Below, in pieces: positions 11,731-63,617 of a stretch of DNA of 64,000 bases. Location: positions 281,816 through 345,815 of the forward strand of contig CAWDEF010000001.1 in NCBI GenBank assembly GCA_963801275.1, written 5' to 3'. Origin of the DNA: an uncultured Acidobacteriota bacterium (GTDB lineage Bacteria; Acidobacteriota; Thermoanaerobaculia; UBA5066; Gp7-AA6). The notes beneath the pieces are model-generated. The model had not been told where the DNA came from. It searched no databases and saw nothing but the letters and a program-made list of their open reading frames with translations. Numbering within the stretch: position 1 is the first letter of the stretch; each line of letters starts with the position of its first letter. The position numbers and the translations under genes are program-made.

Positions 11731-12522
11731 CTATGCCTCCGCGGCCTGGAAGGTGAGGACGACGAGGCCGAACTTGAGGCTGTCGCCGTTCTGCAGAGGA
11801 ACGGGCGTGCCCGTGGCGACGCGATTCTCGTTGACGAAGGTTCCGTTCATCACGCCGATCTCTTCCATGACGTAGAAGTGGCCGCCCATCTGGTAGAGCT
11901 TGGCGTGACGGCGCGAGGTCGAGCGCTGCGTGTCGAGCGGCGTCAGGTCGATGTCGGGGGTGATCCCCGTGACGGGGTCGCTCCGTCCGACGAGCGTGTC
12001 CCCCTCGCGGTTGAGGAAGAACTCCATCGGGGGATCCGTAGCGACGAGCCGGCACAGGTCGCGTTCGCGCTGCGGAGGCGCGCGCCGCGGGGCGGGCTTC
12101 TCCTGCTCCTCGACCTGACGGCCGGCGGCCTCTTCGAGCATGGACGTGACGTCCCGGAGCCGGCGCGAAAGCTTGCGCAGCATGCGCACCGCGATCTCGG
12201 TGTTCCCCTTGAGCATCGAGTCGAACGTGGCGCCGTTGATTCGGACGAGCTCGACGTCGGTCTTCGCCCGGGCGGAGGCCGTGCGAGGCAGGTCCTCGAG
12301 CACACTCATCTCGCCGAAGAAGTCGCCCTTCTCGAGCGTCGCCAGAACGCGGGTCTCCTTGCCGATGGTCTTGATCAGCTCCACCGTTCCCGTTTGAACG
12401 ATGTACATCTCGTTTCCGATCTCGCCCTCGGAGAAGATGATGTCTCCCATCGGGTGGCTGACCAGATAGCGCTCGAACGGGGTCTTTCCGCCACCCGTTC
12501 CGGACTTGAAGACGGCTTTCAC
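11731..12522 (-). CDS. cyclic nucleotide-binding domain plus FHA domain protein
   Basis: The N-terminal half has cNMP-binding (CAP-effector) motifs (GDIIFSEGEIGNEMYIVQTGTVELIK ... GDFFGEMSVL ... RTASARA). The C-terminal half is FHA-like (TLVGRSD ... STSRRHAKL ... NGTFVNENRV). GTG start overlaps the ldcA stop (GTGA). Confidence 0.75.
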   Translation of the reverse strand: MKAVFKSGTGGGKTPFERYLVSHPMGDIIFSEGEIGNEMYIVQTGTVELIKTIGKETRVLATLEKGDFFGEMSVLEDLPRTASARAKTDVELVRINGATFDSMLKGNTEIAVRMLRKLSRRLRDVTSMLEEAAGRQVEEQEKPAPRRAPPQRERDLCRLVATDPPMEFFLNREGDTLVGRSDPVTGITPDIDLTPLDTQRSTSRRHAKLYQMGGHFYVMEEIGVMNGTFVNENRVATGTPVPLQNGDSLKFGLVVLTFQAAEA

Positions 12523-13436
12523 GGGTCACGCACGGCGGGGCCGAGGAAGCGGAGGCGGCCAGCGCCGGCCAGCTCCAGCCGGACGGGGACTCCCAGCGGC
12601 AGGGTCCGCGGGCGGGCCAGATGGCCCGCGGGAAACCCCATCGCAACGGGATACGGGGCGCCGCGAAATCGTGTGCGCAGATACTCCCGCACCGTCCTGG
12701 GTGCCTCCGATCGATCCCGCGACACCACCGAGCCGATCAACATTGCCTGAAGGCGGTCGAATGTACCCGACCGTTCCAGCTGGGTCAACATTCGGTCCAG
12801 GCGGTAGATCTCCTCTCCGATGTCCTCCCAGAAGAGCACGCGCCCTTGCGCCCGGACTGCCTCGGGGGTGCCGCAAAGCGACGCGAGGAGCGACAGGCAA
12901 CCACCAACCAGCGGCCCTTCCCCCGTGCCCTCACGGAGGATGTCCCTCTCATCGAAGTCGTGAGGGGCGGGAGAGCGGCCGCTCACCACGGCCTCCCAGT
13001 CGAGGCCATCCTGCTCGGAGATCTCGACGGCAACCATCGGCCCGTAGAACGCGACGAGACCGCGGGAAGCGAGGAGGGCGAAGAGAGCCGTCAGGTCCGA
13101 GCCCCCGAGGTGCACCTTCGGGTGGGCGATGATCTCCTCGCCGTCGAGGGCACCCAGGACGCGGGCCGCCCCAGAGCCTCCGCGCGCGAAGAAGATGGCG
13201 TCCACATCGGGGTTGCGGAGAAGTCCGCGATAGCCCTCGGCCCGCTCGGCGTCGGTGCCGGCAAAGAGACCGTCCGCCGCCCGGCGCACGTTCGGGGCTT
13301 CGACCACGCGATACCCGCGCGCCCGCAGCCGCGCAATCCCGGAATCCACACGCGCCGGATCGACCGGACCCGAGATCGCCGCCACGCCGATGGTGCCCCC
13401 GGGCCTGAGTCGAGGCGGCCGGATGATCTCGGGCAT
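12519..13436 (-). CDS. LD-carboxypeptidase (peptidase S66; LdcA/MccF family)
   Basis: GTIGVAAISGPV ... AIFFARGGSGAARVL ... typical S66 architecture with the Ser-nucleophile region and a C-terminal His/Glu region. Confidence 0.75.
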   Translation of the reverse strand: MPEIIRPPRLRPGGTIGVAAISGPVDPARVDSGIARLRARGYRVVEAPNVRRAADGLFAGTDAERAEGYRGLLRNPDVDAIFFARGGSGAARVLGALDGEEIIAHPKVHLGGSDLTALFALLASRGLVAFYGPMVAVEISEQDGLDWEAVVSGRSPAPHDFDERDILREGTGEGPLVGGCLSLLASLCGTPEAVRAQGRVLFWEDIGEEIYRLDRMLTQLERSGTFDRLQAMLIGSVVSRDRSEAPRTVREYLRTRFRGAPYPVAMGFPAGHLARPRTLPLGVPVRLELAGAGRLRFLGPAVRDP

Positions 13437-13542: not shown

Positions 13543-13936
<394 letters not shown>

Positions 13937-13969
13937 ACATTGTAGCAGCGACGGCTCGGGGCACGCGCT

Positions 13970-14584
13970 TCAGGGCTCGGCCGCCCGCTCGCTGCGCAGG
14001 GCGCGCCGCGGGTGCTGCAGCTGAAAAAAGAGGACGCGGATCGCGTGCCAGACGGCGCGACGATGGGTCATGAGCAGAACGGCGAGCGCCGCCAGCAGGA
14101 TGGCGGCAAACCAGGGAACGAAAAACGAGACGGTGGCCAGGACGACGGCCACCACGTCCTCGGCGAGCGAAACGGCGAACTGCGCGAAGCCGCGCGTCGC
14201 CGCCGTGGAAGTCAGCCGTGTCGTCGATTTCACGAGTTGAGCGGCCAGGGTCGCGGCTGCGCCGCCGAGGGCGAGAGCGGCCAGCTCCTCGACCCGCGAG
14301 GCGTTCGAGGCGGAAAGCGCCAGCAAGGCCCCCACGATCGGCCGCAACGCCGTCTGGCCGAGGTCCCAGAGGTGGTCGACGATGGGGATCTTGTCCAGGA
14401 TGAATTCCGCGAGGAAGAGCACGAGCGCGATCTGCAGAAGCGCAGGGCTCGAGAGGAAGACGGCGCTGGGACCGGGAAACTCCGGGGGGAGGAGCCGGAT
14501 GAGCCCGTTGAACACGAGCAACACGGCCCAGGCGTTCCATCCGGCCGCGGCCGCGAGACCGAGGCCGGTCAGGATCGACGTCAA
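13970..14584 (-). CDS. DUF4126 family membrane protein
   Basis: GLGLAAAAGWNAWAVLL N-terminus and a multi-TM profile typical of DUF4126; a 4-nt overlap with the upstream gene. Confidence 0.65.
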   Translation of the reverse strand: MTSILTGLGLAAAAGWNAWAVLLVFNGLIRLLPPEFPGPSAVFLSSPALLQIALVLFLAEFILDKIPIVDHLWDLGQTALRPIVGALLALSASNASRVEELAALALGGAAATLAAQLVKSTTRLTSTAATRGFAQFAVSLAEDVVAVVLATVSFFVPWFAAILLAALAVLLMTHRRAVWHAIRVLFFQLQHPRRALRSERAAEP

Positions 14585-16224
14585 TTGCGGGGCTTGAAAA
14601 GCCGGGAAAAGAGGGTCGGCCGGTCGTCCCCGTCGGGCGAAATCGCCGCCTCCGGCAACGTTTCTCCAGGCTCGGCGCGAGGACCCGGCGGCTCGGCGGT
14701 CGTTTGGGCAGGGGCCTGGGCAGATACGCTTCCCGCCATCGCCGCCAGCACCGCGTCGAGCAACAGCCGGTTTTCCGGCGACGCATCCAGGTCGAAGGCC
14801 CTCCGAGCGAACGGCTCCGCTTCGGCGCTACGCCCGCGTTCGTGGAGCGCCGCGGCCGCATCCCGCACGTACTGGGTCCGGCGCGGCTCGAGACGCGCGG
14901 CCTCCTTGAGGTTCTCCAGACCGCGGGCCACCCACATCGAGTTCTTCAGCTCGACCTGCGCCAGCGCGTAGCGGTATTCCGCGTGGTCCGGAACGAATCG
15001 AATCGCCTCGCGCAGCATCTCGACGGCCGGGTGGTAGTCCTTCTGTTCGATCAGCGCTCTGGCCCGGCGGTAGTTTTGAGCCGCCAGGTTCTTGCGCGCC
15101 TGGGGATTAGACGCGGTCTCCGCCGCGGGCGTCACCGGCACGGCGGGCGCCGCCTGCGTCGCGTCGTAGTGGACCCGCAACGCCTGATCCGAGAGCGTCT
15201 CGTGCGCCTCCTTGAGCCGCTCGAAGACTGTCGTCAGCTCCTTCTCGCAGTGAGCGAGGTCCTCGCGATGTCGCAGATCCGGGTGGAAGAGGCGGCTACG
15301 CTCGAAATAGGCCTGGTGGATCTCCTCGGCAGGGGCCTCGGGACGCACGCCGAGAAGCTCGTAGTGGGAGAGCCAGTCGATGCGGCGATACGTATTGCGC
15401 ACCAGCTCCGCGTGACCGGGGGTGCGCTCGGAAGACTGCGCCGCAACCTCGACGTTCAAGGCCTCGAGCCCGCTCGCCGTTTGCGGCACCGCCCCCTCCT
15501 TGCGCCATTCCACGATTCCGCACGAGAGCAGCGCGTAGAGAATCTTGGCTGTCGCGGAGCGGGAGGTGCCGCCGATCTTGAGCAGCGAATCGAGGTCGAG
15601 CCTGCCGTCGATGCGTGAGAGGATGTAGGCCTCCTGCGGGGTCAGCGGCAGGTACTGATAGCGCGACATCGGATCGGTCGAGAGAACGGGGACCTGCCGC
15701 CCGTCGCCCAGGAGCTCCCGAAACAGGTCGGACTCCGGCAGCCGCCGGATCCCCTCCACGATCACAGCGGCCGTCGAAAGCGTCAGCGCCACGTCGGGAT
15801 CGAGCACGCCGGTCGACGACTGGAAGCGGTACTCGCCGTCTCCCCATTCGAAGGTCGAAAAGACGATTTCCTCCACGAGCCGGCGCATTTCGGCGTCCAG
15901 CACCTGGCGCGAAACGAGTCCCTTCTCCAGAAGGATCTTCCCCAGCCGCGCGCGGCCCTGCTTGGCTACGGTCTCGAGGGCCCAGGACAGATCCTGGTCG
16001 GTGATCCAGCCGCGTCGCTTCAGAAAGGCGCCGATGCGCTGACCCTCGCGCGAGGACGTCGCCGTTCGCAGCTCCCCCTTTTCGAAGAAGAGGTGCCGGG
16101 TCTCGTCCCCCCGCACGAGTGTGAGAGTCCCCTTGAGACCCTCCAGAAAGATCCGCCGCAAGACCTGGGGAAGCGGGGTCTCGCTCAAGACTCCTCGGAA
16201 TGCGGCGCGCGGCGTGCTGCTCAT
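14581..16224 (-). CDS. DUF4388 domain, J-domain (DnaJ) and TPR repeat protein
   Basis: Start ATG at 16224 inside the longer ORF 14581-16749. N-terminal DUF4388 signature (TPLPQVLRRIFLEGLKGTLTLVRGDETRHLFFEKGELRTA). J-domain with HPD (HYELLGV ... RLFHPDL). C-terminal TPR-like helices. Confidence 0.75.
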   Translation of the reverse strand: MSSTPRAAFRGVLSETPLPQVLRRIFLEGLKGTLTLVRGDETRHLFFEKGELRTATSSREGQRIGAFLKRRGWITDQDLSWALETVAKQGRARLGKILLEKGLVSRQVLDAEMRRLVEEIVFSTFEWGDGEYRFQSSTGVLDPDVALTLSTAAVIVEGIRRLPESDLFRELLGDGRQVPVLSTDPMSRYQYLPLTPQEAYILSRIDGRLDLDSLLKIGGTSRSATAKILYALLSCGIVEWRKEGAVPQTASGLEALNVEVAAQSSERTPGHAELVRNTYRRIDWLSHYELLGVRPEAPAEEIHQAYFERSRLFHPDLRHREDLAHCEKELTTVFERLKEAHETLSDQALRVHYDATQAAPAVPVTPAAETASNPQARKNLAAQNYRRARALIEQKDYHPAVEMLREAIRFVPDHAEYRYALAQVELKNSMWVARGLENLKEAARLEPRRTQYVRDAAAALHERGRSAEAEPFARRAFDLDASPENRLLLDAVLAAMAGSVSAQAPAQTTAEPPGPRAEPGETLPEAAISPDGDDRPTLFSRLFKPRN

Positions 16225-16264
16225 GACGGATCCGAAACGGGAACGCGGCTTAGGGTAGCAGACT

Positions 16265-18001
16265 TCATCGCACCGAGACGACGGCCGGATGGTTGCGCGG
16301 CGTGACGAAGTAAGGAGGAATTCCTGCCTTGGCCTTGCGGGCCGCTTCGAGCGAAGGATAACGGCCCCAGAAGACCCGGTAGCAGTCGCGTCCCTCGTGG
16401 GTTGTTGCAAGCAGCCACATCGCCTGGGACCGATCGTGGCGAAACGCCTCTTCCAGCGAGGCGCCCTCGCAGACGAGCTCGAGTTGAATCGCGTATCGCG
16501 TGCGTCGATCGCTCTCGAGCCGGCGGCGGTCCTTCGCGGCCCGGGCCGCCCAGCCCCCCTCCGGCTCGGCACGCTCTGATGCCCTGGCCGAGGCGGGTTT
16601 CGGGGCCGTCGCAGCGCGCTTCTGCACCGGCTCCGCACCCTTCGTCGGCGCTGGGTGCGCCGGGGGCTGGGCAGCGGGTCGTGCGGGCTCTGCAGTCGGA
16701 AGCACCACGGCCGGAACGCCCGTGACCGGAGCCGAGGTCGCGCGCTCACGAGCCGATTCCATCCGAGCAGCCGTCACTGGCGGAGGGAACGTCACGGCGA
16801 GGGCCGACGTCGGTCGTGGCGCCGGGGCGGCGGAGCCTCCAGGCGTATTCCGGCCTCGCAGAAGGAGGACGGCTGCGACTCCCACGAGCAGGATTGCAAG
16901 CGCCCAGAGGAGCGGCGGGCCCGCGCGTCGTCCCGAGCGATCGGACGCGGGCTCCTCCTGGCCGGGTTCCTCCGCCGGAGCGGGAGCCCCCCAGAGGTCT
17001 CCAGAGCCGGGCCGGGGCGTTTCGGGGCCCCACCCGGGCTCCGCCGCCGAGGCCTCGAAGCGATCCAGCGGCGAGGGCTCGGGCGAGGGCAGATCGACCA
17101 TCGCGCCGCCCGTCCCCGGCTCGACCGTCTCTTCAGGCGCCCCGATGTCGAAGACTTTCGGTTCCGACTCCCGGGGGAGCGGCTCGGTGGGATCGACCGC
17201 GAGGTCCCCGGATTCCTGTGTCGAGGACGGTCCCTCGATCGGATGCGCAGGCTCCGGCGGCTCCCAGGCGGGCTCGAGCTCCGCCTGGCGGCCCGGGACG
17301 ACGGGCACGGGATGGACGAGCCCAAGCGTGACGAGCGCGGCCAGAAGCTTCCGGACGGCGAACTCCTCGGCGGGGGCCCTCTCGGCGATCTGCGCCGCGG
17401 TGGATCGTCCGTCGATCAAGCGCACGACGGATTCCGCGTCGGCGGTCAGGCCGAACGTGGAGAATTCGGCGTCGAAGTGCTCGCCCCGGACGAGGGGTTG
17501 CTCCGCCGCTCCGATCTGGTGGTCGACGAGGCTTCGATCCCGCGAGCGAAGAAAGAGCTCGAGCAGTAGCCTCGGGATGGGAACGCGGAAATCACCCGCC
17601 TTGGAGCGGGCTTCGGCGTCGAAGCGGTAACGGCCGTCCTCCCAGGAGAGCAGGTCGGACAGCACCTCGATCGCCCGAATCTTTTCGCCCCACTTCCACT
17701 CGCGCCGCGTCAGCAGGCCCGTCTGGAGGGCCGCGAGCGCGGCATCGCCACCCGCCGTCGCCAGCCGCTCGACGGCCTCGCCGGAAATCTTCCCCGCCCG
17801 AACGAGAATGGCGGAGGTCTCGAAGCGCGGGTCGGAGGAGATGACCGACACGATCTCACCTCCCTCGAGGTCGAACCCGCACTCCGACGCTCCCCGCGAG
17901 AACCGGACCGTTCCGCTGGTCGCCTCCCGCCAGCAGGTCACCAGGGCCGCCAGTGGATCGACCCCACGGATTTCCCCCTCGGCCTCGAACACGTTCTTCA
18001 T
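16265..18001 (-). CDS. DUF4388 domain protein with Pro-rich linker, TM segment and C-terminal SPOR-like domain
   Basis: N-terminal DUF4388-like region; Pro/Glu-rich linker; TM (LLWALAILLVGVAAVLLL); C-terminal YAIQLELVCEGASLEEAFRH ... YRVFWGRYPSLEAARKA, typical of SPOR domains. Start overlaps the uvrC stop (ATGA). Confidence 0.7.
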   Translation of the reverse strand: MKNVFEAEGEIRGVDPLAALVTCWREATSGTVRFSRGASECGFDLEGGEIVSVISSDPRFETSAILVRAGKISGEAVERLATAGGDAALAALQTGLLTRREWKWGEKIRAIEVLSDLLSWEDGRYRFDAEARSKAGDFRVPIPRLLLELFLRSRDRSLVDHQIGAAEQPLVRGEHFDAEFSTFGLTADAESVVRLIDGRSTAAQIAERAPAEEFAVRKLLAALVTLGLVHPVPVVPGRQAELEPAWEPPEPAHPIEGPSSTQESGDLAVDPTEPLPRESEPKVFDIGAPEETVEPGTGGAMVDLPSPEPSPLDRFEASAAEPGWGPETPRPGSGDLWGAPAPAEEPGQEEPASDRSGRRAGPPLLWALAILLVGVAAVLLLRGRNTPGGSAAPAPRPTSALAVTFPPPVTAARMESARERATSAPVTGVPAVVLPTAEPARPAAQPPAHPAPTKGAEPVQKRAATAPKPASARASERAEPEGGWAARAAKDRRRLESDRRTRYAIQLELVCEGASLEEAFRHDRSQAMWLLATTHEGRDCYRVFWGRYPSLEAARKAKAGIPPYFVTPRNHPAVVSVR

Positions 18002-19809
18002 GCGGACCGCGCCCTCCCCTGTTCCAGATATGCGAGGACCGCGCGTGCCGCGGCCGGCCCGACGGCTTCCTCGATGGATCTCGGGTCCGCAGCGGCCAGA
18101 CCCGACAGTGAACCGAAACGCGACAGCAGCCGGCGCGCCCGCTTCGGGCCGATGCCCCGGATTTCCGTGAGCGTGGATTCCCGCATCCTGCGCGAGCGCC
18201 GGCCCCGGTGCCGCGTTACGGCGAAGCGGTGCGCTTCGTCTCGCAGCCGCTGCACCAGCTGCAGCGCGGGGTCCTTTCGGCCGAGGCGGATCGGCTCGGG
18301 GCGATCGGCGACCCAGATCTCCTCCTCCCGCTTGGCCAGCCCGGCGGCGGGAATCGTGAGGCCCAGTCGGTCGAGCGCCGTCAGGGTTGCTTGAAGCTGA
18401 CCCCGCCCGCCGTCGACGAGGATCAGGTCGGGCATGGCCCTGCCCTCCTCCCTCAGCCGGCGGTACCTCCGGCCAACCGCTTCTCCCATGCTGCGGAAGT
18501 CATCCGGAGCGAGAAGGCTCTGGGAGGCGATGCCGAAGAGGCGGTAGTCAGACTTTCGGGGCCTGCCGTCCTCGAAAACGACGAGCGACGCCACGCTGTC
18601 GGTGCCCTGGAGGTGCGAGATGTCGAACCCTTCGATGCGGCGAGGAGGCGATGGGAGGTCGAGGACCCGGGCCAGCCGCTGCAGCGCGAGCCCTTCCGCG
18701 CCTCCCTCCCGACGGAATCGCGTGCGATGCCGCTGCTGCGCATTGGTCCCGGCCAGGGCCACCCGTTCGGCGGAGGCCCCGCGGCGGGGAACACGAACCC
18801 TCACGCGAGCCCCGCGTCGTGCAGCCAGGAATTCTTCGAGCAGCTCGGGCCGCGAGATCGCCACCGGCAGGTGGATCTCTCCCGGAAGGAAGGGGTTGGC
18901 GTCATAGAACTGGGGAAGAAACGCTTCGAGGAAGGCGGAAGGCTCCACCTCCTCGGACCTCTCGAAGAAGTACTCGCGCCGATCCTGGACGACGCCGCCA
19001 CGGACCACCAGAACGCAGACCGAAACGTCGTTCGATGCCTCGAAGAAGCCGAACACATCGACGTTCTCGCCTTTCAGGGATTGGACGAGCTGGTGCTCGC
19101 CGACGTCGGCCACCGTCCGGAGCGCGTCCCGGTAGGCGCCGGCCATCTCGAAGTTCTCCTCCTTCGAGGCGCGGAGCATCTTCTCTTGGAGCCGTGCCGA
19201 AAGCTCGCGATTACGGCCCTGAAGAAAAAGCAGGACGTCGGCGACGGCCTCGTCGTAGGCCTCCTTGGTCGTCAGGCCAGCCACGCACGGCCCGAGGCAG
19301 GCGTGCAGGTCGTAATAGAGGCACGGTCGCGGCAACCGGCCGTCGATCTCGATCGTGCAGGTCCGGATCAGGAAGTGCCGGGTGAGCATTCGCAGGATCC
19401 GTCGCGCAAGCCCCCCCCAGAACGGCCCGAAGTAGGAGTGCCCGTCGTCCTCGACCCGCCGGGTGATCAGGGCCCGCGGCCATGCCTCCCCCGTCGTGAT
19501 CTTGATGTAGGGATAGGTCTTGTCGTCCCGGAGGCAGACGTTGTACCGGGGCCGATTCTTCTTGATGAGGGTGTTTTCGAGGAGAAGGGCCTCCAGCTCC
19601 GTGTTCGTGACGATTGTTTCCAGCTCCCGGTACCCCGCGAGCAGGGCGGCAACCTTGGCACTGTCCGGGCCCCGGAGGAAATAGGAAGCCACCCTCTTCT
19701 TGAGGGAGCGGGCCTTTCCGACGTACAGGGGCTTACCCCGGGGACCACGAAAAATGTAGACGCCGGGAGCGTCGGGCAGCCCCTCGGGAGGACGGCGATC
19801 TTCCGACAC
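17998..19809 (-). CDS. uvrC: excinuclease ABC subunit C
   Basis: GIY-YIG N-terminus (PGVYIFRGPRGKPLYVGKARSLKKRVASYF), UVR domain, C-terminal RNase H-like and HhH domains (IRGIGPKRARRLLSRFGS). Confidence 0.9.
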   Translation of the reverse strand: MSEDRRPPEGLPDAPGVYIFRGPRGKPLYVGKARSLKKRVASYFLRGPDSAKVAALLAGYRELETIVTNTELEALLLENTLIKKNRPRYNVCLRDDKTYPYIKITTGEAWPRALITRRVEDDGHSYFGPFWGGLARRILRMLTRHFLIRTCTIEIDGRLPRPCLYYDLHACLGPCVAGLTTKEAYDEAVADVLLFLQGRNRELSARLQEKMLRASKEENFEMAGAYRDALRTVADVGEHQLVQSLKGENVDVFGFFEASNDVSVCVLVVRGGVVQDRREYFFERSEEVEPSAFLEAFLPQFYDANPFLPGEIHLPVAISRPELLEEFLAARRGARVRVRVPRRGASAERVALAGTNAQQRHRTRFRREGGAEGLALQRLARVLDLPSPPRRIEGFDISHLQGTDSVASLVVFEDGRPRKSDYRLFGIASQSLLAPDDFRSMGEAVGRRYRRLREEGRAMPDLILVDGGRGQLQATLTALDRLGLTIPAAGLAKREEEIWVADRPEPIRLGRKDPALQLVQRLRDEAHRFAVTRHRGRRSRRMRESTLTEIRGIGPKRARRLLSRFGSLSGLAAADPRSIEEAVGPAAARAVLAYLEQGRARSA

Positions 19810-19899
19810 GTTGCGCAGTGTAGCCGGGAACTCGCGCGCTGTCAGCTGCCGGAACCGGCCTCGCGTCTCAAGTTATGATTCTCCGGACCGACGACCATC

Positions 19900-20106
19900 A
19901 TGAACGAGTGCCCGTACTGCTACACGCGTGTCGGACCCACCGATACGACGTGCCCGAAATGCGGCCGCAAGATCGACCAATGGCAGACCGGTTTCTATTC
20001 CCGCCAGCCGCTTCCCAACCGCACCCGCACCACCGTATGGGTCGTGGCGGCGATCGCACTCATCCTGATGCTGGGCGGCTTCGCCCGATCCTGCCACTGG
20101 CTCTAG
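19900..20106 (+). CDS. small zinc-ribbon protein with C-terminal TM helix (hypothetical)
   Basis: CPYC ... CPKC four-Cys ribbon; TM VWVVAAIALILMLGGFA. GC-rich third positions. Divergent from uvrC in an otherwise gene-free 300-bp gap. Confidence 0.5.
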   Translation: MNECPYCYTRVGPTDTTCPKCGRKIDQWQTGFYSRQPLPNRTRTTVWVVAAIALILMLGGFARSCHWL

Positions 20107-31695: not shown

Positions 31696-34056
31696 TTACT
31701 GCCGTTTGCCCTGCAGGGCGGCGAGCTGGTCGCGCAGGCTGCGCGCTTCGGGATCCTCGGGATCGAGATCCAGGAGCTTCTGCGCATAGGTCGAAGCGGC
31801 GGGCAGGTCGCCGACTTTTGCGCTGATCGAGGCGAGGGCGACCAGAATTTCACGATTCCCCGTATGGCGGGCGTGCGCGGATGCCAGGACCTCGAGAGCC
31901 CGCCGCGTCTGGCCCGCCGAGTCGAGCGCCACGCCATACACATAGAGGTAACGCGCCCGCTCGGGCGGCAGCGTCGCCGCCTTCTCGAGTTCGATGAGGG
32001 CCTCGTCCTTTCGCTTGAGGCGCACCAGGGTCAACCCGAGCGCGTGGTGAAGGCCCGCGTCGCGCGGCGATCTCCGGAGACCCTCGCGGAGGACTCGCTC
32101 GGCGTCCGCGTCGCGCCCTTGGAGCCGGTAGAGGTCCGCCAGGTTCGCGTACCCGCCCGCCATGGCCGGCACGAGGCTCAAGGCCGTCTGGTACTCCTTC
32201 TCGGCGCGCGCGAGATCTCCCTGTTCGGCGTAGGCGTTGGCCAGAGCCAGGCGCGCCTCCGCGCGGTCCGCGTCGACTGAGAGCGACTGGACGTATTCGG
32301 CAAAAGCCCTCTCGAAGTCGCTGCGATCCGAGGAGTTCAGGCTCTCCTTCGGGACGCCCGCGAGCGCCCGCGCCGCCTCGATTCGGACCGTCAAGATGGG
32401 ATCGCGCAGCAGAGGAGCCGCGATCTCCAGCCGGTGCTCCGGCTGGAGAGACTCGACGGCGTGGAGGGCTCCGCTGCGTACCAGGGGATCGGGATCCCCG
32501 GCCGCCCGCGCGATCGCGTCCCGGACACCCTTTCCAGGCGTGCCTCCCAGCAACGACGCCGCCGTCGCACGCCGAATTCCAGGCTTTCGGGAGTCGAGGA
32601 CGAGGCGCTCGAGCAAGCTTCTCGCATCGGCCCGCTCCTGCCTGCCGGCCAGAATCGCTTCGCCGTCGGGAGGCTCCTGCCGGATCCGGTCACCCCACCA
32701 GCGCAGAGCGGCCTCGGAGGCCCACGCGTCGGAGCGTTTGCGATGGCACCCGGTGCAGGCGTTGGGCGTGCCGAGCGCCGCCGAGAGGTCCGGCCGGGGA
32801 ATCCGCATGCTGTGGTCGTGGCGGGCGTGCACGACCATGTAGTTGCGCGTCGGCATGTGGCAGGATACGCAGCGCGAGCCGGGCGATCCGACCTTGTGGA
32901 AGTGATGCGCAGGGGTTTCGAACTTTTCGGGCATGTGGCAGGCCGCGCAGACCCGGTCGCCCGACACCCGAACTTTCAGGTCGTGGGGATCGTGGCAATT
33001 GGAGCAGGTGACTCCCCCGGCGTACATCTTGCTCTGCAGGAACGAGCCATACTCGTAGACCTCGTCCTGAATCTGCCCGTCCGGAAAGTAGAGCCCTTCC
33101 TCGAGCAGCGCCGGCCGGTGCGTCTGCATGAGAGGCTGGCCATAGACGTAGTCGGCCGCTACGACCGACCGCCGGGAGTGGCAGCGCGCGCAGGTCTCGA
33201 TCTCGGCATGGGAGGTTCGGGGCGCGCTCCGCTTCGCAATACCGGTCTTCAGGTCGAACTCCCAGGTGGCCTTGTCGTGGTCCTTGAGCCCGACCGCCAG
33301 ACCCTTGTCGACACCGTCCTTGCGGGCCGTCCCGGCGCGGACCGCCTCGGCCCACGCGACGTGCGCCGAGCCGGGTCCGTGGCAGGCCTCGCAGGAGACG
33401 TTCAACTCGGACCAGGTCGTCGCGTAGCTGTCCGTCGCGGCGTCGTACCCCTTCTTCACGTCCGTCGAGTGACACTCCGCGCACATGAAGTTCCAGTTCT
33501 GGTAGGGGCCGGTCCAGTGAAGGGGATCCGTGTGAGGGACCTCCTCTGTCGGATAGAGGTGGAACCACCGCTGTCCACCCTCCCGCGCGGGACGCGTGTC
33601 CCAGCACACGTTCAAGGCTTGATAGCGGCCGCCGGGGAAAGGGATCAGATACTGCTGGAGGGGATACTCGCCGAAGGTGTAGGCGATGGGATATTCCGTC
33701 GGCCTTCCGTCGGGGCCGTCCGTGCGGACGAAGAACTTCCCGTCGCGCTTGAAGAAGGTCGTGGTGACCCCGAAGTGCGTGAAGCGCGCGTTGTCGAAGT
33801 TGCCGAGGACCGTCGTCGTGGTTGCCTCCTCCATGGCCAAATCGTGGTGAGATCCGCGCCAGCGCCGGTCCTCCTCGCCGTGGCAGCGCGCGCAGGCCTG
33901 CCGGCCGACGAACGTGGCGTCGTGAGCCAGAGGGGTAGGCGTTGCCGGAATCCGGCTCGGCGGTGGCGCCACGATCTCCCTCTCGCACGCGCCGGTCGCA
34001 AGCGCGAGAAAAACCCCGATCGCCCCGAGAGATCGCCGATCACGTGACGCGCTCAC
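31696..34056 (-). CDS. octaheme c-type cytochrome fused to HEAT (PBS-lyase-like) and TPR repeats; probable lipoprotein
   Basis: Eight CxxCH motifs (CARCH, CAECH, CEACH, CARCH, CSNCH, CAACH, CVSCH, CTGCH). N-terminal signal with LATGAC lipobox-like Cys. C-terminal HEAT repeats (PLVRSGALHAV ... LTVRIEAARALAG) followed by TPR repeats. Confidence 0.8.
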   Translation of the reverse strand: MSASRDRRSLGAIGVFLALATGACEREIVAPPPSRIPATPTPLAHDATFVGRQACARCHGEEDRRWRGSHHDLAMEEATTTTVLGNFDNARFTHFGVTTTFFKRDGKFFVRTDGPDGRPTEYPIAYTFGEYPLQQYLIPFPGGRYQALNVCWDTRPAREGGQRWFHLYPTEEVPHTDPLHWTGPYQNWNFMCAECHSTDVKKGYDAATDSYATTWSELNVSCEACHGPGSAHVAWAEAVRAGTARKDGVDKGLAVGLKDHDKATWEFDLKTGIAKRSAPRTSHAEIETCARCHSRRSVVAADYVYGQPLMQTHRPALLEEGLYFPDGQIQDEVYEYGSFLQSKMYAGGVTCSNCHDPHDLKVRVSGDRVCAACHMPEKFETPAHHFHKVGSPGSRCVSCHMPTRNYMVVHARHDHSMRIPRPDLSAALGTPNACTGCHRKRSDAWASEAALRWWGDRIRQEPPDGEAILAGRQERADARSLLERLVLDSRKPGIRRATAASLLGGTPGKGVRDAIARAAGDPDPLVRSGALHAVESLQPEHRLEIAAPLLRDPILTVRIEAARALAGVPKESLNSSDRSDFERAFAEYVQSLSVDADRAEARLALANAYAEQGDLARAEKEYQTALSLVPAMAGGYANLADLYRLQGRDADAERVLREGLRRSPRDAGLHHALGLTLVRLKRKDEALIELEKAATLPPERARYLYVYGVALDSAGQTRRALEVLASAHARHTGNREILVALASISAKVGDLPAASTYAQKLLDLDPEDPEARSLRDQLAALQGKRQ

Positions 34057-34060
34057 GCGC

Positions 34061-34936
34061 CTATCCGTCCTTGCGCCTGCCGTCGGTCAGGCCCCGGTAC
34101 TCGTCTCGTCGAAGCGTCCGGCAGTCGATGGCGCGCGCTCCCGGGTGGTCGGAGAGAAAGGCTTCGAGCTGCCGGGCACCCGCCTCGACCAGCACGACCG
34201 TCGATCCCGAGCCGCTGAGAGCGCACTCCCGCGCCATTGCACGCCCCCGCTCCAGATACTCCGCCATCTCGGGACGAACCGCGACGGCCGCTGTCTCGAG
34301 ATCGTTCGGCCCGAAGAAGCGGCCGCTCCCCTCGATCTCGAGAGTGGCGGGAGGCTCCGGCCCCCCGCCGATCCGGTCAAACGCGCCGTAGACCTCGGCC
34401 GTGGAGAGTGAGAAAGGCGGCACGAGCAGAACGAGACTCCGCGCAGGAGCGTCGCCGCGCGGCAGCACGATCTCGCCGCGGCCCGAAACGTCCGCCTCGC
34501 CGCCGGCCAGGAAGAACGGCACGTCACTGCCGAGCGAAGCGGCGAGCGCTTGAAGATCCGACTCGCCGAGCCTGCTCTCCCAGACACGGGAGAGCAGACG
34601 CAACGCCACGGCGGCGTCGGCGCTGCCGCCGCCCAGCCCGGCCCCCACGGGCACGCGCTTGACGAGACGCAGGCGCACCCGCGGCTCGATACCGAGCTTC
34701 TCCGCCAGCGCCAGCGCGGCCCGCGCCGCCAGGTTCGAACCGTCCGCGGGAAGCGCGTCGGGCTCGCAGGAGAAGGAGAAACCGTCGGCCGGCTCCGCCT
34801 CGAGCGTGTCGGCCAAATCGACCGCCGCAAACCGCGAGCGGATGGCGTGATAGCCATCTTTGCGGCGCGGGCCGACTCGAAGCTCCCGATTGATCTTCGC
34901 GGGCGCAGACGCCGACCAGGTCCCCCGCCGCGTCAC
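34061..34936 (-). CDS. ispE: 4-diphosphocytidyl-2-C-methyl-D-erythritol kinase
   Basis: APAKINRELRVGPRRKDGYHAI ... VPVGAGLGGGSADAA GHMP-kinase motif. GTG start at 34936 overlaps the upstream stop (GTGA). Confidence 0.85.
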   Translation of the reverse strand: MTRRGTWSASAPAKINRELRVGPRRKDGYHAIRSRFAAVDLADTLEAEPADGFSFSCEPDALPADGSNLAARAALALAEKLGIEPRVRLRLVKRVPVGAGLGGGSADAAVALRLLSRVWESRLGESDLQALAASLGSDVPFFLAGGEADVSGRGEIVLPRGDAPARSLVLLVPPFSLSTAEVYGAFDRIGGGPEPPATLEIEGSGRFFGPNDLETAAVAVRPEMAEYLERGRAMARECALSGSGSTVVLVEAGARQLEAFLSDHPGARAIDCRTLRRDEYRGLTDGRRKDG

Positions 34937-35601
34937 GACGCCGACTCCCGCGAAAGCATCCGAAGCTCGAGCCTGCTGCCCGATGCCTTCTCCCGAATCT
35001 CGATCGATTCGGGCCAGGGGTTTCGGAAATCTGAGAATTTCGCCTCGATCTCGCCGTCGGCGCGAGCGACGCGCAGGGAGCGCAGCCCTCTCTCGAGATC
35101 GAAGATCCCCTCGGCCGCATCGTCTCCGCTCCAGCGGAGCCGGACGCGGCCGCCCCGCTGCCCCTCGACGGTGGGTGCCACCCCAGTCCACGTGCCCGCC
35201 AGCAGGGCGCGGAGCTGACGGGCGGGAAGCGGTATGGGACGCAGCTTTTCGCCGCGAAGCTTCCCATCGGCGTAGGTCGCAATTGGGGCGCCGAAGGGGC
35301 CCGCCAGTGTCGCGTCCACCCGATCGCCGCGCAGGCGCACCGCGAGCGTCCCGTGCATCTTGAGCAGCCCCTGGGACACGGAGGCCTCATACAGCACATT
35401 CGCCGAGGCCTCCGGTTCGGCGCGCGCCACGGCCGCCCGCCACGCACTCTCTGCCGCAAGCGCCTGCTCGACCGACACGGGGGCGAAGCGCGCGCAGGCG
35501 GCGCAAGCGGCGAGTAGAAGGACGAGGACGCCCGCGCGCGCCGCGGCAGGCCACCGCACGACTCGCTCCCCACGGCGCGGGGTGTCGATACCCGCTCGCA
35601 C
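34933..35601 (-). CDS. LolB-like / DUF4292-like outer-membrane lipoprotein
   Basis: Signal plus lipobox (LLLAACAAC); ~220 aa. Its position immediately upstream of ispE matches lolB-ispE-prs synteny. Confidence 0.55.
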   Translation of the reverse strand: MRAGIDTPRRGERVVRWPAAARAGVLVLLLAACAACARFAPVSVEQALAAESAWRAAVARAEPEASANVLYEASVSQGLLKMHGTLAVRLRGDRVDATLAGPFGAPIATYADGKLRGEKLRPIPLPARQLRALLAGTWTGVAPTVEGQRGGRVRLRWSGDDAAEGIFDLERGLRSLRVARADGEIEAKFSDFRNPWPESIEIREKASGSRLELRMLSRESAS

Positions 35602-60962: not shown

Positions 60963-63617
60963 GTGCCCGGGAGCGGTTTGCGCGAGCGAGTGAAAAGAGT
61001 GAACAGAACCTACAGGATTCGAGTCAGGCGCCTGGCCGCCACGTCGCTCATTGCAAGCCTTTTCGCCGCCGCCTCGGCGCTCTGCCAGGGGATGGTCTCG
61101 ACGCAGGATGGCCTCTCCCTGTCGCTCGGCGCTGGGGGCGCCGTCGAGAGCCTCAAGGTCGAGGGCGTCGAATACGCTTCGGCTGCCCTGCCATCCGGAT
61201 TCACCTACCGCGAGCTTCCCGCGACGGCGACGGACATCGCACCCAATGGGTCCTTCGAGGACGGGTCGGGTAAGCCGATCTCCTGGGGTTGGAGCGACGA
61301 CAACGCCGGCTTCTGGTCGTGGGATGACCGACTCGCCATCGCCGGATCGCGCTCTCTTCGCCTGGACGTTCCCGGCTCGACTCCCAGGCGAAGCCCGACG
61401 CTGACGTCGGTGGCCTTTCCGATTCGAGCAGGCACACCGTACACTTTTTCCTGTCAGTTTCGAACGGAGGGATTGAGCTCTCACCTCGACTTGTATGTGG
61501 TCGAGCGGTACGCTGACGGAAGCGGAGTCCAGAGGGGTGTCGTCAGCAGTTCCGGAACAACGGACTGGCAAGGACGCGCCCTGACCTTCACCTCGAGCCC
61601 CAGCGCCGTCTCAGCTTCCTTTCGGGTCGATATCTCAAACGGCTATGGAACGGCGTGGATCGATGACGTCCGGATGCTGGACCTCTTCGCGGGTCGCTCG
61701 GCGATCGCCTTCCCGGGCGCGGTAGCCCAAGACTCCAAGCAGCTCGTCTTCACGGGGTCCGACGGCGGCCTCGACCTCTCCGCGCGATTTACGGACGTCG
61801 ACACCGCCCTGCGGGTGGACGTGACGCTGACCGACTCGAGCGGGCGTGACAGGGCCATCGAGCTCTCGTTCGGTCTACCGCTCGCGGTCCCCGGATGGAT
61901 CTGGGACGACGACTTCGTGACTCCAATGACCATCGCCTCCAGGGTGCGCTACGAGAACCTCGATAAGGGCTTTGGAGATCAAACGCTCGGGCACACTCAT
62001 TCGACGTATCCTTTTGCTGCCGTGCAAGGACCGGGCGCCGCCCTTTCGCTGGCTGTGCCCATGGGGCCCTCGATGTACCGGCTCGCGTACGACGACGCCG
62101 GCGGTTTCCGAGCGACCTACGATCTGGGTCTCTCACCGGCAACGGCCAGACACCCCTCCACGGCCGAGGTCTCCTTCTGGATCTACAGACAGGATCCCCA
62201 GTGGGGATTGCGGTCCACCGCCGAAAAGTACTATGCCCTGAACGCGGCGGCGTTCACGACGTTCGCCCGCGAGCAGGGGGCCTGGGTCCTGGGGAACAGG
62301 CAGCCGATCCAGTCGGTCCCCGACCCGCAAGACTTCGGCTGGGCCTATCACGAGCAAGACAACGAGCTCGCCTTCGATAATGCGAGCGGCATCGTCGCCC
62401 TCCACTACGTGAGTCCCACCGCCTGGACGAGGAAGTTTCCCGACCATGTCGGCCAGCCGCAGCCCTCCTACTCCATCCTCGCCTTGGCGATCGAGAATGA
62501 CCTGAAGGATCCCGTCCGACTCAGCGAAGATGGTGTTCCCGTCTCCCGAATGGCGGCTTCGATCATGGAGACCGCCCCGTACGACCAGAAGGGGCTCTAC
62601 CCGCTCTTCTACAACTCGTACTACTGGAGAAGCGGAGGCGGGTGGCAAAAGTATCCGATGCTGCCGGATCCGGAGATGCCCGAGAGCCTGTACGGGATCG
62701 TCAAGGAGTACAGCGTCGACAATCGGATCTCCGCGGCGGAGCGGGCCGGCAGATCGCTCGGAGGAATCTTTCTCGACAACATCAGCGCGAATTTTGCCAA
62801 CATCGAGAACTACAGGAAGTCCCTCTGGGCCTATCTCGACTCACCGTTGAGCTTCTCCTACGCGACGGGGAGTGTGACCGCCTACGGCGGAGACTCGATT
62901 GCCAAGTTCTGCACTCGATTGCGCGCCGACCTCAACGTCCGGGGCCTCGTCCTCATGGGCAGCCTGAACACCTACGCCTGGTTTACGTCGGGGCTGGACA
63001 TCGTCGGCAGCGAGTCTCAGGGAGCGGGCGACCTGCAGCGTGCCTATGTTCAACGAGCGCTGAGCTACGGCAAGCCATGGACCAATCTGTTCGTGCCGGT
63101 CGGCGGCGCCGCACCAAAGGAAGAAGAGGTGCTCGCCTACCTGCGCCAGGCCCTGCTTCTCGGGTACTTTCCGGGGTTCAACGGCGTCTACTGGGATTCT
63201 CCGTCCTCATACGAGCGCGACCGGCACCTCTTTCGCCTCTACATCCCCCTGATCCGGACGGTAACTGCCGCCGGCTGGCGGCCCATCAACGGCGTGACCG
63301 TCTCGGATCCCGCGGTCCTCGTCGAGAGATTCGACGACGGGCGCGGCGACGTCTTCTATCTGACCGCGCAGAACACCGGCGGCGTCGCGGCCAAGCCACA
63401 GCTCACCCTCGACGGCCAGACGCTCGGTCTCGAGGACGGGAAGGTGACGGTGGAGGAGCTCGTCCGCGGAAGGGCCCTCGCGGCCTCCCGCGCCGGCGCC
63501 GACGCCGGCTTCGCCGACACGCTCGCCCCCGGCGAGACCGTCCTCTACCGCGTCACGGCGCCCCGGCCGTCCGGTCCCGACCGCGCCCCGACGCGCCACA
63601 TCGCCCCCCGCGGGTGA
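60963..63617 (+). CDS. large secreted hypothetical protein with N-terminal CBM-like (galactose-binding-like) domain
   Basis: In-frame GTG starts at 60963, 60990 and 60999. Signal peptide (RRLAATSLIASLFAAASALCQG). Block NGSFEDGSGKPISWGW ... AIAGSRSLRLD ... GTAWIDDVRM resembles CBM4/9/CenC-type modules. The remaining ~600 aa have no family I can place. Confidence 0.6.
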   Translation: MPGSGLRERVKRVNRTYRIRVRRLAATSLIASLFAAASALCQGMVSTQDGLSLSLGAGGAVESLKVEGVEYASAALPSGFTYRELPATATDIAPNGSFEDGSGKPISWGWSDDNAGFWSWDDRLAIAGSRSLRLDVPGSTPRRSPTLTSVAFPIRAGTPYTFSCQFRTEGLSSHLDLYVVERYADGSGVQRGVVSSSGTTDWQGRALTFTSSPSAVSASFRVDISNGYGTAWIDDVRMLDLFAGRSAIAFPGAVAQDSKQLVFTGSDGGLDLSARFTDVDTALRVDVTLTDSSGRDRAIELSFGLPLAVPGWIWDDDFVTPMTIASRVRYENLDKGFGDQTLGHTHSTYPFAAVQGPGAALSLAVPMGPSMYRLAYDDAGGFRATYDLGLSPATARHPSTAEVSFWIYRQDPQWGLRSTAEKYYALNAAAFTTFAREQGAWVLGNRQPIQSVPDPQDFGWAYHEQDNELAFDNASGIVALHYVSPTAWTRKFPDHVGQPQPSYSILALAIENDLKDPVRLSEDGVPVSRMAASIMETAPYDQKGLYPLFYNSYYWRSGGGWQKYPMLPDPEMPESLYGIVKEYSVDNRISAAERAGRSLGGIFLDNISANFANIENYRKSLWAYLDSPLSFSYATGSVTAYGGDSIAKFCTRLRADLNVRGLVLMGSLNTYAWFTSGLDIVGSESQGAGDLQRAYVQRALSYGKPWTNLFVPVGGAAPKEEEVLAYLRQALLLGYFPGFNGVYWDSPSSYERDRHLFRLYIPLIRTVTAAGWRPINGVTVSDPAVLVERFDDGRGDVFYLTAQNTGGVAAKPQLTLDGQTLGLEDGKVTVEELVRGRALAASRAGADAGFADTLAPGETVLYRVTAPRPSGPDRAPTRHIAPRG

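Follow-up and report, generated by a model that had tools for sequence, protein, structure and literature searches.

The two proteins treated here carry a PATAN domain (DUF4388), a widespread domain found in thousands of proteins and in more than 12 in M. xanthus alone (bioRxiv 10.1101/2021.06.11.447907). Such domains work on their own, can interact with themselves and determine where in the cell a protein is placed (bioRxiv 10.1101/2021.06.11.447907). Their molecular role is known so far from a few cyanobacterial response regulators. Anabaena PatA is found at the Z-ring and the poles and binds SepF and ZipN, the latter a membrane-anchored FtsZ tether with a DnaJ domain and a TPR region (PMC7380572, PMC7766704). 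The DNA examined was a stretch of 64,000 nucleotides (nt), referred to as the window, from an uncultured Acidobacteriota bacterium of the Thermoanaerobaculia (GenBank assembly GCA_963801275.1, contig CAWDEF010000001.1, positions 281,816 to 345,815). Two adjacent genes of the window, designated A and B, lie downstream of uvrC and encode one PATAN protein each; protein A is identical to database protein P0121.

At this locus the PATAN domain occurs in two fixed, conserved fusions whose genes are neighbours in each of two Acidobacteriota lineages, one a SPOR reader (A) and the other an adaptor with a J-domain and TPRs (B). The reading preferred here, to which a probability of roughly 45% was given, is that A and B together would form a membrane-spanning scaffold that places chaperone activity at an envelope site. 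The parts of the two genes are as follows.

16265..18001, minus strand: gene A, 578 amino acids (aa), predicted bitopic PATAN-SPOR protein of the inner membrane
17303..18001, minus strand: A residues 1-233, PATAN (DUF4388) domain with degenerate alpha-clip and a winged-helix-like domain, predicted to be cytoplasmic
16937..17296, minus strand: A residues 236-355, Pro/Glu-rich acidic linker (25 Pro and 20 Glu in 120 residues)
16859..16918, minus strand: A residues 362-381, single transmembrane helix (Kyte-Doolittle)
16502..16846, minus strand: A residues 386-500, Ala/Pro-rich linker, presumably periplasmic (29 Ala and 20 Pro in 115 residues)
16268..16495, minus strand: A residues 503-578, DamX-type SPOR domain (orthologue-profile match)
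14581..16224, minus strand: gene B, 547 aa, protein with PATAN, winged-helix, J and TPR domains
15733..16200, minus strand: B residues 9-164, PATAN (DUF4388) domain (Pfam, 73.4 bits, match to residues 11-164)
15877..16038, minus strand: B residues 63-116, alpha-clip insertion, homologous to the 53-residue cyclic di-guanosine monophosphate (c-di-GMP) module of MshEN
15505..15672, minus strand: B residues 185-240, winged-helix domain (RRE/PqqD- or Lrp/MarR-like)
15163..15366, minus strand: B residues 287-354, J-domain (Pfam DnaJ, PF00226, 51 bits against a gathering score of 27.8)
14722..15105, minus strand: B residues 374-501, TPR domain of seven helices, about 3.5 repeats (AlphaFold helices)
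14584..14622, minus strand: B residues 535-547, basic amphipathic tail RPTLFSRLFKPRN, candidate membrane-targeting helix

The initial annotation, made from the letters of the DNA, had placed DUF4388 at the N-termini of both proteins, and this was borne out by Pfam (PF14332; 30.1 bits for A and 73.4 bits for B against a gathering score of 25). The N-terminus of A was aligned with the N-terminal module of the B family over 233 columns using hhalign (99.3% probability, E 2.7e-20), and A and B matched each other by BLASTP with an E value of 2e-7 over about 217 residues. The alpha-clip segment is retained in A but has lost its RLG motifs and four residues by deletion.

The linker, membrane helix and C-terminal SPOR domain that had been ascribed to A were also present. 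The 19-residue Kyte-Doolittle maximum of A (2.73) lies at PLLWALAILLVGVAAVLLL and is preceded by the basic stretch DRSGRRA. As A has one transmembrane helix and no signal peptide, its PATAN end is inferred to be cytoplasmic and its SPOR end periplasmic. The last 76 residues of A are highly conserved (Y.IQLEL.CE...WLL...H.GR.C.RV.WGRY.S.E.A...K..IP.YF.T..N.PAVV) and score below the gathering threshold of Pfam SPOR (PF05036) as a single sequence (13.8 versus 21 bits). A profile of 19 orthologous A C-termini had as its sole match in the PDB the SPOR domain of DamX (2LFV; E 1.9e-4, 78 residues), the A orthologue L081A reached 20.3 bits against the Pfam cutoff of 21, and the NCBIfam DamX model matched the C-terminus of A with an E value of 1.2e-4. 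For these reasons the predicted C-terminal domain was accepted as a SPOR domain of the DamX type. SPOR domains bind glycan strands stripped of their peptides (denuded), which are enriched at the septum.

The structure of B was predicted with AlphaFold from an alignment containing 38 diverse homologues (mean predicted local distance difference test score, pLDDT, 86.9). Residues 1-250 were modelled again separately (pLDDT 91.3, predicted template-modelling score 0.86), since the fold search with the full-length model was swamped by TPR proteins. In the models a beta-rich PATAN core is interrupted by four helices (residues 64-124) and is followed by a three-helix winged helix, the J-domain, seven TPR-type helices, a disordered stretch and a short terminal helix. 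The J-domain of B with its HPD tripeptide, part of the initial annotation, was confirmed; the tripeptide is at residues 314-316 between helices 299-312 and 321-345, and P315 is almost invariant across the family. For the TPR helices, also noticed initially, single sequence models remained below threshold (the best, TPR_14, gave 21.7 bits versus a gathering score of 23.5), precomputed TPR matches were present in many orthologues, and the assignment was made from the AlphaFold helices, which Foldseek placed on three-TPR proteins (CTPR3, SGT and Hip TPR domains) with template-modelling scores of 0.80-0.86.

No transmembrane helix was detected in B by hydropathy (maximum 1.38). Its basic tail, RPTLFSRLFKPRN, was present in 118 of 120 orthologues. 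Tails of the same type end distant family members (GFLGKLFGNKK, GLLKRLFPRG, GFLDRLFKG); under a strict pattern 26 of the 89 distant representatives had one, and further ones had looser forms. The tails of the B family (LFSRLFK, GFLGKLFG, GLLKRLFP) are, we presume, comparable to the C-terminal amphipathic membrane-targeting helix of MinD.

The named homologues of A and B come from metagenome-assembled genomes of Thermoanaerobaculia (Acidobacteriota). For a wider survey one genome per GTDB species was scanned with 10 closer sequences as query. This gave 80 loci, all from Thermoanaerobaculia or Acidobacteriota, in which B was 58-94% identical. The A+B pair was found with its full architecture in all 80 Thermoanaerobaculia loci, in the deeper relative L081 and in three loci of a second lineage. 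Its position after uvrC was kept across the Thermoanaerobaculia loci, a synteny that the initial annotation had proposed to look for. The identity of 58-94% across the class, together with alpha-clip positions that are almost invariant, indicates that B is under strong constraint. Relatives of B make up 303 clusters at 50% identity (E<1e-30), many of them aligning end to end at 25-35% identity. The features of the locus are far beyond chance.

Gene contexts farther away were taken from single-locus look-ups of distant B-family members. In a second Acidobacteriota lineage (L085, L086 and L092 from GCA_042585305.1) the order was hfq, in some cases preceded by miaA, then a TPR/SLH gene, an A-type gene and a B-type gene; no uvrC was found beside the pair in these three loci. 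The B proteins there were 27-35% identical to B of the window. The A-type protein of the second lineage has a PATAN domain with good RLG motifs, a winged helix, an acidic linker, a transmembrane helix, a Pro/Thr linker and the C-terminus Y.LQLE..C....Y.G..CY...WG.Y.S...A......VPAFFR. Since A and B follow hfq and the TPR/SLH gene without uvrC in another lineage, the conserved unit is the A+B pair and not the link to repair.

The proposed mechanism is the following. By reading septal or denuded peptidoglycan, A would mark a site on the envelope, either where the cell divides or at a new pole. B, as a cytoplasmic protein, would join A through the PATAN and winged-helix units of about 235 residues that the two proteins share, and would be held at the membrane by its basic amphipathic tail. 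The J-domain of B would then recruit and activate DnaK at the marked site, where DnaK would act on a client bound to the TPR domain, by assembly, remodelling or removal. The alpha-clip of B may provide a surface to which a partner binds; that it senses a nucleotide is, for this group of orthologues, the less likely option. The locus thus offers a testable hypothesis, that PATAN units pair in order to place chaperone activity at an envelope site.

Domain content, homology, the reasoning on topology, conservation of the pair and the gene overlaps are shown here, whereas the contact between A and B, their localisation, the recruitment of DnaK and the client are inferred. Several points weigh against this scaffold. 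The SPOR assignment draws on a profile match of E 1.9e-4 and on Pfam scores below threshold, and the presumed targeting of the tail to the membrane on its likeness to the MinD helix. Not all SPOR proteins are components of the divisome. Neither fts, min nor pil genes, nor Mgl or GGDEF/EAL genes, were found by Pfam among the approximately 35 other open reading frames (ORFs) of the 64-kb window. Other B-like genes are solitary, standing in unrelated contexts without an adjacent A, and one A-like gene has a TPR/peptidase-MA gene as its partner in place of B, so that the pairing is not obligatory. Finally, the PATAN proteins that have been studied act mainly on type IV pili and not on division (bioRxiv 10.1101/2021.06.11.447907).

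This last point leads to the alternative in which A and B regulate a type IV pilus or gliding polarity in the manner of PATAN proteins of cyanobacteria and myxobacteria, with the alpha-clip of B mimicking or competing with the MshEN N-terminus of a PilB-type ATPase and A serving as a polar anchor. The insertion of B speaks for such a link. Its four helices (64-70, 76-89, 94-100 and 106-124 in the AlphaFold models) are inserted between strands, and the stretch they occupy, RIGAFLKRRGWITDQDLSWALETVAKQGRARLGKILLEKGLVSRQVLDAEMRRL, corresponds to residues 63-116. A profile of the B-family N-terminus run against the PDB gave significant matches exclusively to MshEN/GSPII domains, the best neighbours of the insertion being the N-domains of PilF, PilB and MshE: Thermus PilF was matched in four stretches (E 1.7e-23), V. 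cholerae MshE-N (5HTL) with an E value of 3.2e-11, and several PilB proteins as well. Using Foldseek, 50 residues of the insertion were superposed on PilF-GSPIIB with c-di-GMP bound at 1.4 A and 38% identity. The insertion is thus a true homologue of the MshEN module. In cyanobacteria the PATAN domains of PixG, PixE and relatives bind PilB1 and PilC and reverse phototaxis, and the authors of that work remarked that the alpha-clip is common to PATAN and the N-termini of PilB (bioRxiv 10.1101/2021.06.11.447907). PATAN proteins are also found near SgmX, a regulator of polar type IVa pili in M. xanthus. The reading nevertheless accounts for neither the SPOR domain nor the J-domain, and the REC domain that couples cyanobacterial PATAN proteins to taxis signalling is absent from A and B. 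No pil, gsp or mglA/B genes were found in the window or beside the pair in the second lineage. A local link to a type IV pilus or to MglA/B was looked for with Pfam in the other ORFs of the window and rejected, as these are housekeeping genes only. A role in pili or polarity is considered unlikely.

The kinship of the insertion with a c-di-GMP-binding module, real in sequence and in fold, raises a second alternative, that B is a c-di-GMP receptor in which binding to the alpha-clip switches the activity of the J-domain and TPRs or the association with A. The initial annotation had noted in B a stretch matching most positions of the MshEN motif. The match itself stood: of the 11 positions that the MshEN motif specifies, 7 agree in the first half of the stretch and 9 in the second. 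That it marks something particular to B did not stand. The PATAN domain was defined with an alpha-helical insertion (Makarova et al. 2006, as summarised in bioRxiv 10.1101/2021.06.11.447907), and alpha-clip repeats also open the N1 domain of the ATPases of type II secretion systems and type IV pili (bioRxiv 10.1101/2021.06.11.447907, citing Makarova et al. 2006). The MshEN-like stretch is therefore the defining insertion of most PATAN domains, no special addition to B, and its kinship with MshEN had already been published.

The c-di-GMP motif has 24 residues, RLGxx(L/V/I)(L/V/I)xxG(L/V/I)(L/V/I)xxxxLxxxLxxQ, and occurs twice with a spacer of five residues; the two Gln make polar contacts with the ribose and phosphate of c-di-GMP, and Gln32 of MshE was one of two residues first implicated in binding (PMC5013675). 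The positions RLG, L6, G10, h12 and L17 are almost invariant in 119 orthologues of B, and the NCBIfam model for the MshE-related c-di-GMP motif (NF053729) gave B an E value of 3.4e-9. Its score of 36.3 bits lies under the curated cutoff of 38, with model positions 1-46 of 53 covered. Neither the strict pattern nor the relaxed pattern of the authors was matched by the insertion, and the spacer, AKQGRA, has six residues versus five in MshEN. Position 24 is V86 in motif 1 and L116 in motif 2; in the 119 orthologues it is always V or I in the first and L in the second, never Gln. Among 89 diverse representatives of the family, position 24 of motif 2 was Gln in 38 and His in 28. Of the five features tested for membership in MshEN, four were missing from B, the superposition of the four helices being the one found. 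The literature searched contained no account of a PATAN domain that binds c-di-GMP. Because the motifs fail, both Gln are missing, the spacer is one of six residues and NF053729 scores below its cutoff, binding of c-di-GMP by B cannot be assumed from its sequence, and a receptor function appears rather improbable. Insertions of this kind, derived from MshEN and without Gln, provide a natural test of whether c-di-GMP is still bound.

The place of the pair behind uvrC was examined from the layout of the region, which has a G+C content of 69%. uvrC, A, B, the DUF4126 gene and rnpB all lie on the minus strand. The features flanking A and B are these.

19900-20106, plus strand: small gene, 68 aa, CxxC...CxxC zinc ribbon and one transmembrane helix, between uvrB and uvrC
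19817..19845, minus strand: sigma-70-like promoter candidate, CTGACA-17-TACACT (consensus match only), upstream of uvrC
17998..19809, minus strand: uvrC, 603 aa, heading the putative unit (Pfam GIY-YIG, UVR, UvrC_RNaseH, UvrC_RNaseH_dom, HHH_5)
13970..14584, minus strand: DUF4126 membrane protein, 204 aa (Pfam, 125.7 bits)
13549..13926, minus strand: rnpB, bacterial RNase P RNA class A (Rfam RF00010, 286 bits, full length)

uvrC ends ...GCATGA, its TGA stop sharing ATGA with the ATG of gene A, an overlap already seen in the initial annotation. A and B are separated by 40 nt in this genome. The mechanical ORF of gene B spans 14581-16749, and the ATG at 16224 is the start that agrees with all homologues. 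The DUF4126 gene begins with a TTG that shares TTGA with the stop of gene B, and rnpB lies 43 nt downstream of it; both had been noted there on the same strand. The promoter candidate is 8 nt 5' of the GTG of uvrC (consensus scan, 2 sites versus 0.7 +/- 0.7 expected). No terminator-like site was found by the terminator scan in the intergenic gaps from uvrC to rnpB; three such sites between uvrC and rnpB each lie within coding sequence, and the total of nine (versus 6.5 +/- 3.0 expected) is at chance level, so that the sites were not used. The small gene on the opposite strand was kept in 62 related loci at 50-88% identity; on this conservation it is taken to be a genuine gene, and as it separates uvrB from uvrC, uvrB is placed outside the unit and uvrC starts a unit of its own.

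Gene order and strand were alike in the 80 loci wherever the contig reaches: uvrB, uvrC, A, B, DUF4126, rnpB, LD-carboxypeptidase, a gene for a cyclic-nucleotide (cNMP)-binding/FHA protein, and recG. uvrC and A overlap by 4 nt in 53 of 61 related loci, B and DUF4126 in 49 of 52; the gaps from A to B were mostly 11-56 nt (median near 42). In a deeper relative, L081, whose B is 47% identical, uvrC overlaps A and is followed by B, DUF4126 and then an NYN/YacP gene. The conserved overlaps, the lack of a terminator-like site between the genes and the promoter-like site before uvrC support co-transcription of A and B in Thermoanaerobaculia in a unit running from uvrC to DUF4126, and uvrC with A and B with DUF4126 are probably translationally coupled there. 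The operon-like coupling to uvrC that had been proposed at the outset is in keeping with this. In one sub-lineage (L011, L012, L016, L018 and L020) uvrC and A do not overlap and are 132-161 nt apart, with 99-203 nt between A and B, which leaves room for internal promoters.

A functional linkage, in which excision repair would be coupled through the operon to a module of division or of the envelope, for instance so that septation is delayed or the divisome remodelled during the repair of damage, could draw on the persistence of the uvrC/A overlap (in those 53 of 61 loci across uvrC identities of 69-87%, and in the deeper relative) and on the presence of uvrB and recG in the wider block. Conservation of the neighbours says little on function, since the whole 13-kb block is collinear within Thermoanaerobaculia; it includes rnpB, the LD-carboxypeptidase gene and the cNMP/FHA gene, and linkage need not mean shared function. 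The pair occurs without uvrC in another lineage, B-like genes stand in unrelated contexts, and the overlap gives way to a gap in one sub-lineage of Thermoanaerobaculia. Mixed operons with uvrC exist elsewhere, as in E. coli, where uvrC lies in the operon uvrY-uvrC-pgsA. A functional tie to repair is thus very improbable, and the significance first attached to it was not upheld: the linkage is an operon arrangement of one lineage and lies outside the function of the module. For annotation, the lesson is that linkage to uvrC is not to be read as a repair function. A broader scheme is likewise given a very low probability. In it the PATAN and winged-helix unit would be a general address module that builds complexes across the envelope, and the MshEN-derived alpha-clip of B would be a switch, gated by a ligand or partner (c-di-GMP, another nucleotide or an MshEN-type ATPase), that licenses the recruitment of DnaK to SPOR-marked septal peptidoglycan. 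With the module expressed from the uvrC promoter, this remodelling would follow the state of DNA damage; if true, this would be a division checkpoint of a kind undescribed before.

Some further observations were made along the block. The B homologue P0056 (658 aa) also has a DUF4126 domain, either a true fusion or a stop missed at the 4-nt overlap. An NYN/YacP gene (PF05991) of about 150 aa lies between DUF4126 and rnpB in relatives (L063:10240-10746, L081:7900-8355) and is missing here, where the gap between DUF4126 and rnpB is 43 nt (13927-13969); in L091 a YacP gene lies divergently upstream of an A-like gene. At 11731-12522 (minus strand) and 12519-13436 (minus strand) the gene for the cNMP-binding and FHA protein overlaps the stop of the LD-carboxypeptidase gene by 4 nt, and every related locus that reaches far enough has this pair between rnpB and recG.

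Other genes of the window are housekeeping genes: rluB, scpA/B, an ECF sigma factor gene, recG, a class A penicillin-binding protein gene (PBP1), murJ and mutS, and further ssb, ribosomal protein genes, prs, hut genes and purA. Two ORFs, at 60963-63617 (plus strand, 884 aa) and 34933-35601 (minus strand, 222 aa), have a coding-like G+C content at third codon positions and no Pfam match. At 31696-34056 (minus strand) a protein of 786 aa is encoded that joins multihaem cytochrome c motifs (Cytochrome_C7/c3) to HEAT repeats and a TPR region of some length.

Two other candidate readings were tried and rejected. JGI annotation names B homologues "curved DNA-binding protein CbpA"; the sole CbpA-like match of B lies within its J-domain (NCBIfam curved DNA-binding protein model, E 1.1e-4, residues 287-357) and no CbpA C-terminal domain was found, so the name probably reflects the J-domain alone. 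A defence-system reading was discarded, as A, B and the DUF4126 protein matched no PADLOC model.

What was already known of these proteins is the database label "DUF4388 domain-containing" and the published MshEN kinship of the insertion. The literature search on DUF4388 found no paper describing the architecture of A or of B, and no paper describing uvrC with a DUF4388 pair was found in the literature searched, which agrees with the initial annotation that the arrangement is undescribed. Also seemingly undescribed are the conserved pairing of A with B, the fixed architecture of each and, in Thermoanaerobaculia, the operon led by uvrC.

Compared with known systems, A resembles DamX, DedD and FtsN in having a cytoplasmic N-terminus, one transmembrane helix, a long periplasmic linker of low complexity and a C-terminal SPOR domain, and the closest solved relative of its C-terminus is the SPOR domain of DamX. 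Those proteins have a short cytoplasmic tail, whereas A has a folded PATAN and winged-helix region of 233 residues; no similarity extends beyond the SPOR domain, itself sub-threshold in Pfam, and a relation of A to DamX is supported for that domain only. B shares with DjlA of E. coli and TopJ of Mycoplasma the combination of a J-domain with a targeting module. In DjlA and TopJ this combination brings DnaK to one cellular location. Their targeting modules are unrelated to those of B, the NCBIfam TopJ J-domain models matched B weakly, and the likeness is one of logic only. In MshE, PilF and PilB the MshEN/GSPII (T2SSE_N) domain is the N-terminal domain of an ATPase, whereas in B it is an insertion within PATAN that lacks both Gln, has the six-residue spacer and scores below the NCBIfam cutoff.

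ZipN (Ftn2/ARC6), a division protein of cyanobacteria and plastids, is like B in having a J-domain together with TPRs and an attachment to the membrane, which in B is a predicted one, and ZipN is a known partner of a PATAN protein, PatA. In ZipN the J-domain is N-terminal, the TPRs are central and a transmembrane helix is C-terminal (PMC7766704), whereas in B the PATAN and winged-helix domains come first, the J-domain is internal and the end is an amphipathic tail. The sequence relation shown between them is limited to generic J and TPR domains; as the domain order differs and B has no transmembrane helix, B is not a member of the ZipN family. The cyanobacterial PATAN-REC proteins PatA, PixG, PixE and LsiR begin with the same kind of PATAN domain (PF14332), alpha-clip included, which in PatA-type proteins is an autonomous unit of interaction and localisation, PatA itself being placed at Z-ring and poles. 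In A and B no match to Response_reg was found, a winged helix follows the PATAN domain, and the lineage is Acidobacteriota; by domain content they are members of PATAN/DUF4388 and not response regulators of the PatA type. PatA-type proteins meet their partners in trans, whereas in A and B the SPOR domain, or the J-domain and TPRs, are fused in cis, and the locus recreates in cis the contact between PatA and ZipN that is seen in trans in Anabaena.

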